Source of the DNA: a virus
Taxonomy: Duplodnaviria > Heunggongvirae > Uroviricota > Caudoviricetes
IMG/VR virus record: IMGVR_UViG_2695420643_000029
DNA length: 21,877 bases
Direction: 5' to 3' (one strand)
In this document: piece by piece, positions 1,553 to 21,877 of the stretch
Layout of the letters: the number at the start of each line of letters is the position of its first letter
Position numbering within the stretch: the first letter of the stretch is position 1
The notes under the pieces: model-generated
Told to the model about the DNA's origin: nothing
The model's database searches: none
What the model saw: the letters and a program-made list of their open reading frames with translations, nothing else
Translations under genes and position numbers: made by a program

Positions 1553-1741
1553 TCACGAGGACAGAAGTTTCTCGCAATTAAAATTTATCAGCTTTACTTT
1601 CTGCTCTCTGGACACGCCTGCTTCTTTTTTCCCTGAGAGCATTTTTTCGCATTCTGATTTCGTTAATTTAGATTTTGAATATCTTGTCCAGTTAGTAGGA
1701 GTGCCACCTTCTTTTTCAATAGTGGCAGTTATTTTATACAT
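1553..1741 (-). CDS. Small hypothetical protein, YdaC-like by position
   Basis: ORF MYKITATIEKEGGTPTNW...; ATG at 1739-1741 preceded by GGAGGTG; lies between xis and ralR as ydaC does in Rac; family assignment uncertain. Confidence 0.55.
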   Translation of the reverse strand: MYKITATIEKEGGTPTNWTRYSKSKLTKSECEKMLSGKKEAGVSREQKVKLINFNCEKLLSS

Positions 1742-5974: not shown

Positions 5975-6823
5975 CTATTTAATACTCAGCAACTGCTCGA
6001 CGGTCATATTTTTAATTGCGCTTCGGTTTACAAGAGTCCAGCCCTGTTTCTCCAGATAAAGGCGGAAAGTGTCCAGGGTACAGACGAGAGCGCCATCAGG
6101 AACGGTTTCAGTGAATTCGACGTTGCCGAATTTGTCGAAGCGAACAACCAGAGTGCGCCCATCGCCCGGAATGATTTTGTTTGTGGGAGTGGTATTATTC
6201 TGGCGTAGCTCTGCTTCCATGCGGTCGAACTCAGCGATGTAGGCCTCTTTGAATGCAGCGGCTTTTTTGCCAGTGAAACCCATCACCAGGAAAACGAAGC
6301 CGTTTTTGGTGATTTGGTACATTGGGAGTTTGCGCCCGGTTGAGTCGGTGTATTCACTTGGCTTAAAATTAAGCTCAGTGAATTCTGAGGAACATTCCAG
6401 AGCTTCAATTTTTTGAATGACGTTTTTATGCAGCTTGCGGAAAAACTCTGCAACTGCAACAGACGTAGTGACAGCACGACCATTTTCGATGGTTACGTCA
6501 GGGTGAGAAAGGGTAGGGATAGTAGCCATGATGGCAGCCTCTAGTGATAAGTTGGTAAACTCACCACCGGAGGTGCAAATCTCATGGGTGGTGAGACGTA
6601 CAGGGTTTGCACTACCGGTCACTAGAGAATCCGGCCCGCCCGAAAACGGCCCCATACGCCCCACCATAATCTGAATGTGGCTGCGCTTTACGCATAAAAA
6701 AACCGCTTTGGCGCGGTTATGCGCTCTAGTGATCATCGGGGTGCAAATCCCGGCACCCGTTTTATGAGGTGCAGGTGCACTATAATTCCACCCGTTCTGG
6801 TTTTCAATAGCTACATCCAACAT
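5975..6823 (-). CDS. Rha-family phage regulatory protein (Phage_pRha-like domain), with possible ~98-aa N-terminal extension
   Basis: Rha-like core (...GRAVTTSVAVAEFFRKLHKNVIQKIEAL...PMYQITKNGFVFLVMGFTGKKAAAFKEAYIAEFDRME); AGGTGAG SD before ATG 6823; alternative internal start at 6529 (MATIPTLSHPD) with AGAGG SD. Confidence 0.7.
   Translation of the reverse strand: MLDVAIENQNGWNYSAPAPHKTGAGICTPMITRAHNRAKAVFLCVKRSHIQIMVGRMGPFSGGPDSLVTGSANPVRLTTHEICTSGGEFTNLSLEAAIMATIPTLSHPDVTIENGRAVTTSVAVAEFFRKLHKNVIQKIEALECSSEFTELNFKPSEYTDSTGRKLPMYQITKNGFVFLVMGFTGKKAAAFKEAYIAEFDRMEAELRQNNTTPTNKIIPGDGRTLVVRFDKFGNVEFTETVPDGALVCTLDTFRLYLEKQGWTLVNRSAIKNMTVEQLLSIK
6694..6718 (-). terminator. Terminator-like hairpin (AACCGC-N6-GCGGTT + U7) inside the 5' part of the Rha-like ORF
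   Basis: Minus-sense stem-loop followed by TTTTTTT; its intragenic position is unusual. Confidence 0.35.
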
Positions 6824-7234
6824 TTTCTCTCACCTTTCATCACTGAAGTGAACTTTGTTGATGCGGTGCCTGGTGCCTCCAGGTGACGTTAACCAGTTAA
6901 CAATTAACGCCGGATAATCCACCCATAACACTGATGCTTTTAACTGTGCCGCGTGCGCTCAGCCGCATTCACCGCATCACAAAATTCACTTTAAAAAGGG
7001 GCGGCAGGGCAGCCACGGAGTAGAACTGATGCCGCCAAGACTACACACAGCAATGTCGTTATTTACAACCGGAGGCGCACTCCCACCATTTAAATTTAAC
7101 AGACAAGACCGACTCTTTATGGATATCGGAAATGCGCCTTCGTGTTGTGCCCGGTTTTATTTCACCACCTCCGGGCTTTGGTGGCCTCGGCTATACCCCT
7201 ACAGCAAGAATATTGAATTAATCCAATAAATGGT

Positions 7235-16949: not shown

Positions 16950-18896
16950 ATGACATTTAAACATTATGATGTTGTCAGGGCGGCGTCGCCGTCAGACCTT
17001 GCTGATGCACTTGCTCAAAAAATTCGTGAAGGATGGCAACCATACGGCGGGCCGTTTTCTTCGTATACGGATGATGGCGCAGCACTTATTCAGGCGATTG
17101 TCGCAGAAGGTGATGTGAGCACACCTGTTGTGGTGAAGCCGACAGGTGGAGAAGGTGCAGTAATCAGCGCCACCAGCGACCCGGAGTATTACTTTGTTGT
17201 GGTTCTGGCGGGGCAGTCAAACAGCATGGCATATGGTGAAGGCCTTCCGCTGCCGGAGACATATGACCGTCCGGACCCGCGCATTAAGCAGCTGGCGCGT
17301 CGCAGTACGGTGACACCGGGCGGTGTCGCCTGTAAATATAACGACATCATTCCGGCGGACCATTGTCTGCATGATGTGCAGGACATGAGCCGCCTTAACC
17401 ATCCGAAAGCGGACCTGTCAAAGGGGCAGTACGGAACCGTGGGGCAGGGGCTGCATATCGCCAAAAAATTGCTGCCGTTTATACCGGCGAATGCGGGCAT
17501 TCTGCTGGTTCCGTGCTGTCGTGGTGGTTCAGCGTTCACCACCGGAGCTGATGGCACATACAGTGACGCGAGTGGTGCTTCGGAGAATTCAACCCGCTGG
17601 GGTGTGGACAAGCCGCTGTATAAGGACCTTATCGGTCGAACAAAAGCAGCACTGAAGAAGAACCCGAAAAATGTGCTGTTTGCCGTGGTGTGGATGCAGG
17701 GGGAATTTGATTTTGGCGGTACGCCGGCAAATCACGCAGCACAGTTTGGTGCGCTGGTTGATAAATTCCGTGCAGACCTGGCGGATATGGCAGGTCAGTG
17801 CGTCGGTGGCTCTGCTGGCGGTGTTCCCTGGATATGTGGAGATACGACGTATTTCTGGAAGCAGAAGAACGAATCCACGTACCAGACGGTGTACGGCAGC
17901 TATAAAAACAAAACGGAAAAGAATATCCATTTCGTACCGTTCATGACCGATGAGAACGGGGTGAATGTGCCGACGAACAAACCGGAAGAAGACCCGGACA
18001 TTCCGGGTATCGGATATTACGGTTCGAAATGGCGTGACAGCTCAGCCACCTGGACGTCACAGGACAGGGCGAGCCATTTCAGCGCCTGGGCACGCCGTGG
18101 GATTATTTCCGACCGTCTGGCAACGGCGATTTTGCGCCATGCGGGAAGAGTGGCGCTAAACGCGGGGGCATCATCGACAGTATCAGAGGTGCGCCCTTCA
18201 TCGCCTTCCGATGCAGAAGCCACAGGCGTCACAACACTGCTCTCTTACCTTGCCAGCGAGTCAGAGGGAAGCCTGAAAGTACAGGGATGGTCAGCCAGTG
18301 GCGGCAGGGCAGAAGTGGTCAGCGATGCGGAGGGAACCGGAGGTAAGGCAGTGAAGCTGACCAAGGAGGCCGGTAAAAGCAGCTGGGTGCTGGAGTACGC
18401 CGCGGGCAACGGTGCGGCTCTGTTACAGAAAGGGGGGCAGATTCGCTGCCGCTTTAAGGTTTCGGGAGCGCTGGCTGCGAACCAGTATGTTATGGCGTTT
18501 TACTGGCCGGTATCTTCACTGCCACAGGGCGTTGCCCTGACCGGAGACGGGGGGAATAACCTGCTGGCAGCGTTCTACATCCAGACAGATGCAAAAGACC
18601 TGAATGTGATGTACCACAATGCGAAAGTGGCGACAAACAACCTGAAACTGGGAACCTTTGGCGCATTTGATAACGAATGGCATACGCTGGCTTTCCGCTT
18701 TGCCGGGAATAACAGCCTTCAGGTGACGCCGGTTATTGATGGTCAGGATGGCACACCGTTCACGCTGACGCAGTCACCGGTCAGTGCATTTGCGGCGGAT
18801 AAACTGCATGTGACAGACATTACCAGGAGTGCGACTTACCCGGTGCTGATTGACAGCATTGCGGTGGAAGTGAACAGCACAGACACTGCGGCATGA
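16950..18896 (+). CDS. nanS-p: Prophage sialate O-acetylesterase-like protein (NanS-p type; SGNH/SASA esterase core)
   Basis: 648 aa; GQSN motif in FVVVLAGQSNSMAYG; GGGAGG SD; position between Q region and lysis cassette as in Stx-type lambdoid prophages. Confidence 0.65.
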   Translation: MTFKHYDVVRAASPSDLADALAQKIREGWQPYGGPFSSYTDDGAALIQAIVAEGDVSTPVVVKPTGGEGAVISATSDPEYYFVVVLAGQSNSMAYGEGLPLPETYDRPDPRIKQLARRSTVTPGGVACKYNDIIPADHCLHDVQDMSRLNHPKADLSKGQYGTVGQGLHIAKKLLPFIPANAGILLVPCCRGGSAFTTGADGTYSDASGASENSTRWGVDKPLYKDLIGRTKAALKKNPKNVLFAVVWMQGEFDFGGTPANHAAQFGALVDKFRADLADMAGQCVGGSAGGVPWICGDTTYFWKQKNESTYQTVYGSYKNKTEKNIHFVPFMTDENGVNVPTNKPEEDPDIPGIGYYGSKWRDSSATWTSQDRASHFSAWARRGIISDRLATAILRHAGRVALNAGASSTVSEVRPSSPSDAEATGVTTLLSYLASESEGSLKVQGWSASGGRAEVVSDAEGTGGKAVKLTKEAGKSSWVLEYAAGNGAALLQKGGQIRCRFKVSGALAANQYVMAFYWPVSSLPQGVALTGDGGNNLLAAFYIQTDAKDLNVMYHNAKVATNNLKLGTFGAFDNEWHTLAFRFAGNNSLQVTPVIDGQDGTPFTLTQSPVSAFAADKLHVTDITRSATYPVLIDSIAVEVNSTDTAA

Positions 18897-19032
18897 TAAA
18901 AAAAACCGCCAGCGACAGGAATGGACGCTGGCGGTGGTAATACCTATGGAGAAAAAATAAAGGAACGATACTTTCGTACTCTGGTTTTTTAATGAAAACA
19001 GTTCTTATTGTCAACAATAACGGAAAGAAATT

Positions 19033-19212
19033 ATGACATTTCTGAACCAGTTAATGCTGTACTTCTGTACGGTGGTCTGTGTGCTGTATCTCCTTTCGGG
19101 TGGGTACAGGGCCATGCGTGACTTCTGGCGCAGACAGATTGACAAAAGGGCCGCTGAGAAAATCAGCGCCAGTCAGTCAGCCGGAAGCAAACCCGAAGAG
19201 CCGCTCATTTAG
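19033..19212 (+). CDS. Small hypothetical membrane protein (59 aa)
   Basis: Hand-translated MTFLNQLMLYFCTVVCVLYLLSGGYRAMRDFWRRQIDKRAAEKISASQSAGSKPEEPLI; hydrophobic N-terminus. Confidence 0.4.
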   Translation: MTFLNQLMLYFCTVVCVLYLLSGGYRAMRDFWRRQIDKRAAEKISASQSAGSKPEEPLI

Positions 19213-19252
19213 CGGCAACTTTCTTAATCACATCTTTCGACGAGAAAATCCC

Positions 19253-19498
19253 ATGTCAGAAATTACATCCCTGGTCACTGCTGAAGCAGTGAAGGAAGTC
19301 CTGCGCTCTGAAGAAGTCCGGAGCGCACTGAAACAGAAACTTCGCCATAACCTGGAAGCGCGTCTTGATGCAGAAGTGGATGCCATTCTGGATGAACTGC
19401 TGGGCGCACCGGCAGCTCCGGAGCCGGAAGGCATCGCGGGTGAGGGGAGTGCTTCAGATAGCGGTGACCCCACACCGGACAGCGACATGATGATGTAA
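19253..19498 (+). CDS. Small hypothetical acidic protein (81 aa)
   Basis: [50 protein letters not shown]...; longest ORF from 19079 overlaps previous ORF. Confidence 0.5.
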
Positions 19499-19794: not shown

Positions 19795-20436
19795 ATGAAC
19801 CATGAAGAAATGAATCAGCGCATAAGTTGCCTGGAAAATGAAATCACTGAACTGAATAAAAAACTGTCGGTGCTGATGGTTTCTGAAGATGAAAAAAAAC
19901 GCCGCGATGAGCAGGAAGCAGCGTTTTACGATGATTGCATCAAAATTGCTCGCAGGACCTTTGCGAAGATTTTGCAGGAAAAGTTTTTACCGACCGCATT
20001 GTCAGAAAAGTACTCCATTACAGTTAAAAGTGCCGGAGAGGAAGGCAATAAACGTTATTTTATTGCGTCTGCACCGGATAAAGACCAGGAATGGGAGTGT
20101 AATCGGCCATCTTTTATTGTGACCAGCGATGACTGGAATATCACGATCAGTGAAGATGGAAAAGTAACACCAGCATCGCACCAGCACAGTGAGGCGCTCA
20201 TTGAATTTGCCATTGATTACCTGAAGAACAATAAAAAGCAGGGACTAATGAAGCGCATTGGTCGTTGCATGGGATATCTGCAGGTAGCTGCTGAGATTGA
20301 AGCGCTGGCCAGTGGTGCGGACAAGGATGCAGTTGTGCGGGAGGCTCTTCTTCGTGATTTTGATAATCCGCCCTTTAAAAAAGTGCCGGCTTACTGGTTT
20401 CATCCAGGACTGACTTATCTTAAAGGACGTATATAA
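19795..20436 (+). CDS. Unknown 213-aa protein inserted between holin and endolysin
   Basis: ORF with GGGGAGAG SD, starts 4 nt after holin stop; N-terminal coiled-coil-like segment; no catalytic motif recognised. Confidence 0.7.
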   Translation: MNHEEMNQRISCLENEITELNKKLSVLMVSEDEKKRRDEQEAAFYDDCIKIARRTFAKILQEKFLPTALSEKYSITVKSAGEEGNKRYFIASAPDKDQEWECNRPSFIVTSDDWNITISEDGKVTPASHQHSEALIEFAIDYLKNNKKQGLMKRIGRCMGYLQVAAEIEALASGADKDAVVREALLRDFDNPPFKKVPAYWFHPGLTYLKGRI

Positions 20437-21311: not shown

Positions 21312-21806
21312 ATGAACCGCGTACTGTGCGTGGTCATCATTGCCCTGCTGGTGGCCTGTGGTGCGCTTAGTCTGGGGCTGAATCATTACCGTGATAACGC
21401 CATAACCTACAAAGAGCAGCGCGATAAAAAAGTCAGTGAGCTGGAGCAGGCAAATGCAACCATTACTGATATGCAGCAGCGCCAGCGTGATGTTGCTGCA
21501 CTCGATGCAAAATACTCGAGGGAATTAGCCGATGCGAGAGCTGAAAATGAAACTCTGCGTGCTGATGTTGCCGCTGGTCGTAAGCGCCTGCGGATCAACG
21601 CCACCTGCCCCGGTACCGTGCGTGAAGCCACCGGCACCTCCGGCGTGGATAATGCAACCGGCCCCCGACTGGCAGACACCGCTGAACGGGATTATTTCAT
21701 CCTCAGAGAACGGTTGATGACAATGCAGAAGCAGCTGGAAGGGGCGCAGGAATATATCCGCACTCAGTGCACTAAGCTGGCTTTTTATTATCCGGAGGAT
21801 ACATGA
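21312..21806 (+). CDS. Rz: Rz i-spanin
   Basis: 164 aa with lambda-Rz-like NHYRDNAITYKEQRDK...QRQRDVAALDAKYSRELADA...RLADTAERDYFILRERL. Confidence 0.9.
   Translation: MNRVLCVVIIALLVACGALSLGLNHYRDNAITYKEQRDKKVSELEQANATITDMQQRQRDVAALDAKYSRELADARAENETLRADVAAGRKRLRINATCPGTVREATGTSGVDNATGPRLADTAERDYFILRERLMTMQKQLEGAQEYIRTQCTKLAFYYPEDT
21532..21717 (+). CDS. Rz1: Rz1 o-spanin lipoprotein embedded in +1 frame of Rz
   Basis: 61 aa MRELKMKLCVLMLPLVVSACGSTPPAPVPCVKPPAPPAWIMQPAPDWQTPLNGIISSSENG; lipobox-like LVVSAC; Pro-rich. Confidence 0.85.
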   Translation: MRELKMKLCVLMLPLVVSACGSTPPAPVPCVKPPAPPAWIMQPAPDWQTPLNGIISSSENG

Positions 21807-21877
21807 AGAAATTACTGGTAACCGTAAAGCCTTTTCAGGGAACAATTCCGTTCCGTGTTTTGCAGCGTGGTCGTGTT
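21803..21877 (+). CDS. 5' end of a further ORF (MKKLLVTVKPFQGTIPFRVLQRGRV...), truncated by window end
   Basis: ATG overlaps Rz stop (ATGA); only 25 codons visible. Confidence 0.3.
   Translation, partial: MKKLLVTVKPFQGTIPFRVLQRGRV

Follow-up and report, generated by a model that had tools for sequence, protein, structure and literature searches.

Esr41 (EcOnc14) is a ~70-nt RNA of enterohaemorrhagic Escherichia coli (EHEC) O157, encoded on SpLE1 (OI-43/48) near iha and the ter cluster, and it depends on Hfq for both its stability and its function. It binds the chuA, cirA and bfr mRNAs at the ribosome-binding site (RBS) and represses them (PMC5286369, PMC8065619, PMC9002310). Esr41 is among the few pathotype-specific sRNAs with validated virulence-related targets, which comprise haem and siderophore receptors, bacterioferritin, the LEE and flagella, and it has so far been regarded as belonging to one island, in a single copy.

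A second group of described RNAs is represented by PasA and PasC of EPEC E2348/69, which have been validated by Northern blot, by Hfq-dependent stability and by RIL-seq (Pearl Mizrahi et al., PMC8550237 Table S6). On NC_011601, PasA runs from 743499 to 743415, with a minor 236-nt isoform that ends at 743264, and PasC from 1290909 to 1290832; PasA is flanked by an esterase gene and the gene after it and points against both ('> < >'; same table). EcOnc51/52 are the EHEC homologues of PasA. The published PasA/PasC family was defined by blastn and has the synteny esterase-pasA/pasC-holin-lysozyme, with a pasD-to-pasA distance of ~2,170 bp (2026 preprint of Zhu, Shabalina and Storz; 10.64898/2026.05.13.724894); the same work reports frequent Rfam Esr41 matches near PasD. 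Minus-strand sRNA genes within plus-strand phage operons of this type are already known (Tree et al. 2014, PMC4104026).

Here we present a locus at 18898-19014, minus strand, of a 21,877-nt stretch of viral DNA (IMG/VR record IMGVR_UViG_2695420643_000029, hereafter the window) that is probably a small-RNA gene, Esr41-like from promoter to terminator. Judged from its sequence, the element is most likely an unannotated, diverged paralogue of Esr41, a discrete sRNA gene lodged in the slot that PasA and PasC occupy. The missing RNA annotation at this position carries no weight, because PGAP leaves even canonical Esr41 unannotated. Other literature on Esr41, the EcOnc RNAs and sRNA103 makes no mention of the locus.

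The window is the late region of a lambdoid Stx-type prophage without stx genes (Table 1), in which the element is followed by the genes for DUF1378, DUF826, a P21-type holin, lysozyme and Rz. The earlier note, which had drawn attention to the hairpin and palindrome in this gap, took all nearby genes to lie on the plus strand; this is right for the protein-coding genes, including the small ORF that it placed at 19033 and that encodes DUF1378, but overlooks the minus-strand sRNA gene AgvB ~2.1 kb upstream. A 213-aa ORF in the holin-lysozyme interval, 19795-20436 (+), has no Pfam match at E <= 0.001. STnc100 and AgvB converge on each other, a pairing of sRNAs that is typical of the PR' 'moron' site, and nanS-p directly follows; from this arrangement and the lack of stx, the prophage resembles the non-Stx Sakai prophages Sp10 and Sp17, which carry AgvB1/2. 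Like the element, AgvB and AsxR are short minus-strand Hfq-type sRNAs with their own promoters in the late operon of the same prophages. Unlike it, they lie upstream of nanS-p, have no sequence similarity to it and are anti-sRNAs that sponge core sRNAs, whereas the element looks like an mRNA-targeting RNA of the anti-Shine-Dalgarno (anti-SD) type.

Table 1. Features of the element and of its surroundings in the window (positions of the 21,877-nt stretch).
Feature	Position	Strand	Score or basis
RalA antitoxin RNA	1557-1735	+	Rfam gathering score
C4 antisense RNA	6584-6671	-	Rfam gathering score
IsrK	6696-6772	-	Rfam gathering score
DicF	6999-7049	-	Rfam gathering score
hok/sok-type Sok RNA	14009-14184	+	Rfam gathering score
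Q-like antiterminator, followed by a tRNA-like element	15586-16248
PR'-leader sRNA STnc100 (StxS-PasD-like)	16547-16740	+	141.8 bits
Anti-sRNA AgvB, exact	16741-16802	-	96.5 bits
nanS-p	16950-18896	+	DUF1737 + SASA esterase + DUF6645
U8 terminator tail, likely Hfq-binding 3' end	18898-18905	-	direct sequence reading
Terminator hairpin	18906-18934	-	9-bp stem CCGCCAGCG/CGCUGGCGG, 11-nt loop UCCAUUCCUGU
Small hairpin GGUAUUACC	18936-18944	-	RNAalifold and single-sequence fold
Single-stranded U-rich stretch with putative seed	18946-18963	-	unpaired in MFE and centroid folds
5' hairpin GUAC-GAAA-GUAU(C), GNRA-type loop; predicted +1 at ~18979-18980	18967-18979	-	fold
Putative -10 TAAAAA	18986-18991	-	weak, A in place of the consensus final T
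-35 hexamer TTGACA, within the dyad	19009-19014	-	consensus-perfect
Dyad TTATTG-N4-CAATAA	19005-19010/19015-19020	.	perfect in 17 of 57 variants
DUF1378 ORF	start 19033	+
Rz	21312-21806

We begin with the hairpin of the element. The nanS-p stop codon (TGA, 18894-18896) is followed by a single T, by eight A residues and then by the GC-rich stem, whose left arm CCGCCAGCG occupies 18906-18914 and whose right arm CGCTGGCGG occupies 18926-18934. Both the perfect 9-bp stem with its 11-nt loop, put by the earlier note at about 18905-18934, and the A8 run before it were thus present, and the U-run does fall on the minus-strand transcript. On the plus strand the stem is succeeded by TGGTAATACC, not by a U-run, the sequence directly past it being UGGUAAUACC. 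A GC-rich stem-loop with an immediate U-run, the hallmark of an intrinsic terminator, is therefore found on the minus strand and not on the plus strand, and a consensus scan likewise called a terminator-like site here on the minus strand and none on the plus strand. A plus-strand or bidirectional terminator was rejected, since the plus strand has no U-run. The element shares the GC-rich stem and U-run with canonical intrinsic terminators, including the tR' of StxS and PasD, but in contrast to these its terminator points the opposite way to the operon and is part of a separate gene on the minus strand.

The hairpin has a predicted dG of -18.3 kcal/mol, and the values across all family members range from -13 to -21 kcal/mol. 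Using a strict definition (a perfect 8-bp stem with at least five G/C and at least seven T in the next nine bases), we found two sites in the 21.9-kb window, namely the hairpin next to nanS-p and a tR'-like site at 16709 (+). Each of 40 dinucleotide-preserving shuffles contained none, which argues that the hairpin is more than a chance occurrence. The 151-nt region as a whole also folds better than expected on both strands, with z = -3.6 for the minus and -3.9 for the plus strand. Among 24 distinct variants the seven core pairs of the stem are unchanged. The only changes between variants are at the eighth pair, which passes from C-G through U.G (L004) to U-A (L005), and at the next, which is G-C or A-U depending on the subfamily; the tail is T6-T9 in all 57 variants. 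Covariation support was nil within the subfamily, where RNAalifold and pair counts on 13 and 24 variants equalled those of shuffles, the stem core being invariant and partly fixed by the retrieval pattern. A MAFFT alignment of the hairpin across subfamilies was set aside because it misplaced the 3' arms. The proposed terminator structure is supported by thermodynamics and by analogy with the mapped 3' ends of homologues, to which we return below.

The loop UCCAUUCCUGU, at 18915-18925, hardly varies and contains a second copy of the UCCAU motif found in the putative seed (18946-18951). In AsxR and FnrS, the terminator loop serves as a pairing site. By analogy, the loop of the element might offer Hfq a contact or serve as a further seed.

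Upstream of the hairpin, with respect to the minus strand, lies what appears to be a promoter. The TTATTG-N4-CAATAA palindrome, proposed earlier to be a protein-binding site, does exist, one base to the right of the 19004-19019 first given for it. Most of the 57 variants match at four of the six dyad positions, and the changes are not compensatory; the hexamer within it reads TTGACA in 52 distinct variants and TTGACT in the other 5, so that TTGAC(A/T) is present in 57 of 57. With the dyad so seldom perfect (Table 1) and its changes uncompensated, we rejected a conserved operator. The symmetry looks incidental to a -35 box. A putative -10 follows after a 17-nt spacer; in every variant it has the form TA(A/G)AAA and is separated from the -35 box by 17-18 nt. 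The consensus promoter scan of the window did not call this TAAAAA, as it demands T at position 6. Canonical Esr41, an expressed sRNA, has a similarly imperfect -10, TATATA, with an 18-nt spacer.

We infer from these boxes an active promoter of the sigma-70 type that would start an RNA at ~18979-18980. The predicted transcript is ~82 nt long (18979->18898) and would consist of a GNRA-capped 5' hairpin, a U-rich single strand that includes UUCUCCAU, a second, small hairpin and a terminator of 9 bp with its U8 tail, so that transcription would stop just short of entering nanS-p in the antisense direction. The predicted RNA folds with z = -4.96, and none of 200 shuffles folded as well. Its 5' hairpin is moderately supported: CGAAAG is nearly invariant among variants, and the register of the stem moves between them. 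The full single-stranded stretch reads UUCCUUUAUUUUUUCUCCAUA, and the putative seed UUCUCCAU (18953->18946) is invariant in 13 BLAST-derived copies that were not picked by pattern. In the small hairpin, two G-C pairs are kept in 22 of the 24 variants, and the third pair is weak.

Neither strand of the element shows coding potential, and the overlapping ORFs are non-coding. An ATG on the plus strand opposite the seed opens MEKK* in the window and unrelated longer peptides in other variants; as, in addition, the lengths of the variants are divided evenly among the three classes modulo 3, the coding reading was rejected.

The homology to Esr41 covers the RNA in full. When 18700-19300 was scanned with Rfam under permissive settings, one notable match was returned, to Esr41 (RF02676) at 18898-18974 (-), which spans model positions 1-74 of 74 with 30.9 bits and E = 6.6e-4. 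The gathering score of this model is 102 bits, and the scan at gathering threshold gave no match. For direct comparison, canonical Esr41 was taken from an O157:H7 genome, where it lies near iha (L003, between iha and an IS3 element). Local alignment of the predicted RNA with Esr41 scored 44, as against 14.1 +/- 2.4 for shuffles, 0 of 2000 of which reached 44; the scores against PasC and PasA were 26 and 25.

Esr41 is laid out as TTGACA, an 18-nt spacer, TATATA, ~5 nt, a hairpin GAUGC..GCAUC, ACAUUUUCUCCAU, GGGGUAUUCCC, CGCCGGCA..UGCUGGCG and a U-run. The element has this plan in common with it from end to end: a promoter TTGACA-N17/18-TA(N)A(N)A followed after ~5 nt by the 5' hairpin, a single-stranded block containing UUUUCUCCAU, a small hairpin of the GG..CC type (GGUAUUACC, corresponding to GGGGUAUUCCC of Esr41), and a CGCC(A/G)GC...GCUGGCG terminator with a long U-tail. 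The homology thus takes in 5' hairpin, seed block, small hairpin and terminator with U-tail. The 5' hairpin of the element aligns with GAUGC...GCAUC, and the Esr41 +1 aligns to ~18979-18980. Identity is ~77% over the alignable part, with differences in the loop sequence and the 5' hairpin. The two also differ in setting, Esr41 residing on its island and the element between nanS-p and the DUF1378 gene in a lambdoid late operon, as well as in copy number, with up to 7 elements per genome as compared to 1-2 copies of Esr41.

The converse search gave a concordant result for Esr41. Model R1, a covariance model of 24 distinct esterase-linked variants from which Esr41, PasA and PasC had been left out, recovers canonical Esr41 at full length with 29.1 bits (E = 1.5e-4). 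PasA and PasC score a marginal 19.9 and 19.6 bits (E ~0.015-0.018), with the 21-nt central module missing. The tR' of StxS in Sakai Sp5 (L015, 529-605 +), which has the GCCAGC..GCUGGC stem in common with them and with the Esr41-like terminators, reaches 18.7 bits; since this unrelated terminator scores almost as well, the R1 scores of PasA and PasC alone are weak evidence. Terminators with a GCCAGC stem seem to recur as a module in phages of this kind.

Position and mapped ends also link the element to PasA and PasC. Both share the slot and the orientation of the element, being antisense to the SASA esterase gene on one side and to the lysis genes on the other. The RefSeq esterase genes of NC_011601 end at 743265 and 1290830, so the 3' end of PasC (1290832) and that of the minor PasA isoform (743264) adjoin an esterase stop. 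Both ends thus fall at an A-run and a GCCAGCG..CGCUGGC hairpin abutting the stop, as in the window. Esr41, too, has its 3' end at a homologous hairpin. That homologous hairpins in the same place and orientation coincide with mapped RNA 3' ends supports the reading of the window hairpin as a minus-strand terminator, a PasC-type GCCAGC(G) stem with a U-run directly against the esterase stop. No change is seen in TTGACA, the GCCAGC arms or the T-run when the window is compared with PasC, PasA and an unannotated third copy from prophage PP2, and TTGACA stands at a corresponding distance in PasA, PasC and Esr41. Ten nucleotides comprising a stem arm and the start of the loop, GCCAGCGUCC, are identical in PasC and the window RNA, and the 5' hairpins are related. 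Similarity to PasA and PasC does not run through the whole RNA, however, and goes no further than the -35 box, 5' hairpin and terminator; they lack the central 21-nt seed and small-hairpin module of the element as well as its complementarity to chuA. They are also followed by a class II holin-RrrD cassette, in place of the DUF1378-DUF826-P21-type holin order found after the element. In the window, the distance from the end of STnc100, the PasD relative (16740), to the U-run of the element (18898) is ~2,160 bp. The published Esr41 matches near PasD are probably of the element type; the source gives neither thresholds nor coordinates for them.

The third PasC-like unit of E2348/69, in PP2 (L001, 2767-2880 (-)), has a TTGACA promoter, a GCCAGCG terminator and T7. 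It sits between the esterase stop and pasA, and its terminator is where the minor PasA isoform ends (743264). This 236-nt isoform may therefore be read-through of PasA into the third unit.

The element is widespread. Of 5,426 complete E. coli genomes, 973 contain the 151-nt region, in a median of 2 and at most 7 copies and always between an esterase gene and a DUF1378 gene. The region is also present in 306 of 50,697 phage records, mostly those of Stx1- and Stx2-converting phages. A strict 24-base pattern, searched in 185,579 species representatives and in IMG/VR, occurred in more than 120 IMG/VR prophage contigs and, among the representatives, in E. coli and S. flexneri only, both times as canonical Esr41, apart from one chance match in a Chloroflexi MAG. 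The latter was rejected as a relative, having nothing in common beyond the letters of the pattern. Spread beyond Escherichia and Shigella was thus not seen with this pattern, which may miss diverged relatives.

Mean pairwise identities were computed for 13 deliberately diverged copies. The whole intergenic region is 0.86 identical, better conserved than the last 300 nt of the adjoining esterase gene (0.68), and the DUF1378 gene stands at 0.91. Within the gap, the -35 box and spacer are the best-conserved part (0.97), followed by the terminator (0.885), the 5' part of the RNA (0.845) and the seed (0.83), with the lowest value (0.64) in the start-site zone, where indels cluster. The T-run is the exact point at which four different esterase 3' ends are joined on, and in L012-L014 homology to the window starts exactly there. 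The switch of esterase ends at this point implies that the 3' end of the RNA is a mosaic boundary and that the element travels with the DUF1378-lysis module.

Several individual copies deserve mention. A divergent class from IMG/VR (L042, L054, L068 and L123) has a -35 box TTGACT, the loop AGGUCUCAGGCAA and the seed UUGAUUCUCCAUGAA, and L119 looks recombinant, joining a divergent-class seed to a window-type terminator. In Sakai Sp5 (L015, 4504-5813), IS629 splits nanS-p, and the downstream Esr41-like element and DUF1378 gene are intact.

Complementarity to a known Esr41 target points to a possible function. The Sakai chuA leader contains ...UUUUCCUCAUGGAGAAUCGCUAUG, and the seed UUCUCCAU is complementary to AUGGAGAA over its SD sequence. 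Duplexes were predicted within the accessible region of each RNA, a whole-molecule prediction with chuA having been dropped because it over-extended into the terminator. Under these conditions Esr41 pairs with the chuA SD through 12 contiguous pairs at -20.2 kcal/mol (0 of 1000 shuffles as good), and the window RNA through the 8-bp core UUCUCCAU:AUGGAGAA plus 3 pairs at -15.3 kcal/mol (15 of 1000 shuffles). The L010 type forms 9 pairs over the SD and two short stretches upstream (-18.1 kcal/mol; 3 of 1000), and the L042 type forms 13 contiguous pairs with the SD region (-20.3 kcal/mol; 0 of 1000). PasA and PasC, at -8.0 and -8.5 kcal/mol, did no better than shuffles and are not significant. 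The in silico pairing of the window RNA is suggestive only, because an 8-nt seed complements a generic SD-like motif.

The most economical hypothesis is that the element specifies an Hfq-type anti-SD sRNA with targets that overlap those of Esr41. By analogy with its relatives, the RNA would be made in the lysogen and would be bound by Hfq through its terminator and U-tail. The CUCCAU block, again by analogy, would act as an anti-SD seed and repress the translation of host mRNAs such as chuA.

Against this stands the possibility that the element is of Esr41/Pas-type descent but a relic or silent gene without appreciable expression, wedged between the esterase stop and the DUF1378 RBS; of the alternatives it fares best, and we consider it unlikely. 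Sakai Sp5 carries a near-identical copy of the element, and the 60-odd Hfq-CRAC EcOnc peaks of Sakai in Table S2 of Tree et al. include EcOnc51/52 and EcOnc14 (Esr41) but none at this copy, as would be expected of a silent gene; peak calling on a multi-copy element may, however, have dropped multi-mapping reads. The weak -10 points the same way, and the high conservation of the -35 box and the sequence upstream of it, which come within 19 nt of the DUF1378 start codon, could in part serve a plus-strand RBS or 5' UTR. Against a relic speaks the conservation, which covers the whole RNA, terminator, seed and 5' part alike, and exceeds that of the adjacent coding sequence. Moreover, the BLAST-derived copies all have the same loop and seed, with indels in the start-site zone and nowhere else, and the diverged variants keep or improve their complementarity to the chuA SD.

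We regard as very unlikely the proposal of the earlier note that the hairpin is an antisense insulator. On this reading a stand-alone terminator would do no more than halt stray minus-strand transcripts coming out of the lysis region, and the RNA would play no part in trans. The hairpin is unidirectional, acts on the minus strand and not on the plus-strand genes if it terminates as predicted, and lies exactly at the 3' end of nanS-p, which it would shield from antisense read-through; to this extent the proposal holds. It fails in that the hairpin is not free-standing but forms the 3' end of a conserved ~82-nt unit, homologous at full length to a trans-acting sRNA and possessing a conserved single-stranded seed. 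This unit has its own conserved -35 and -10 boxes ~80-115 nt upstream, and the transcription stopped at the stem would mostly be the element's own. Least probable of all is a plus-strand role, as a nanS-p 3' stabiliser or processing site, a DUF1378 5'-UTR structure or, through the dyad, an operator for a DNA-binding protein: the same stem does form in plus-strand RNA, and it is the DUF1378-DUF826-holin module, rather than the esterase, with which the element is genetically linked, but there is no plus-strand U-run past the stem, the conserved A-run would be left without a function, the dyad is mostly imperfect, and the full-length resemblance to Esr41, promoter included, would go unexplained.

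Taking the element, then, as a small-RNA gene of the Esr41 type, its interest lies in its being widespread, multi-copy and phage-borne. It would account for a very common 'orphan' reverse terminator downstream of nanS-p. If it is expressed, ~18% of complete E. coli genomes and most sequenced Stx1 and Stx2 phages carry 1-7 extra Esr41-type genes, relatives that Rfam-based annotation has missed; in that case studies of esr41 deletions could be confounded by paralogues, and phage carriage could modulate iron uptake. Esr41, PasA and PasC are possible members of one modular family.

A bolder extension of this reading is conceivable, although we hold it to be rather doubtful. The esterase-lysis slot as a whole would be a modular sRNA slot, in which PasA, PasC and Esr41-like cassettes with at least 4 seed variants are swapped by recombination at the shared promoter and terminator, and the Esr41-like ones would be active, multi-copy, dosage-dependent repressors of haem and iron uptake (chuA, probably cirA/bfr). 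Were this true, the Stx1 and Stx2 phages themselves, beyond the SpLE1 island, would rewire the iron acquisition of the host, and the kept or extended complementarity to the chuA SD among variants would reflect selection on chuA.

Finally, one more minus-strand sRNA may be encoded near the end of the window. In Sakai Sp10 the distance from AgvB1 downstream to EcOnc11, an Hfq-CRAC peak of great strength, is 5,036 nt, and in Sp9 EcOnc12 lies 5,025 nt from EcOnc03; EcOnc10, EcOnc11 and EcOnc12 have near-identical read scores. The equivalent offset from AgvB in the window falls at ~21777-21830 (-), just past Rz, where, by analogy, another uncharacterised sRNA may be found.
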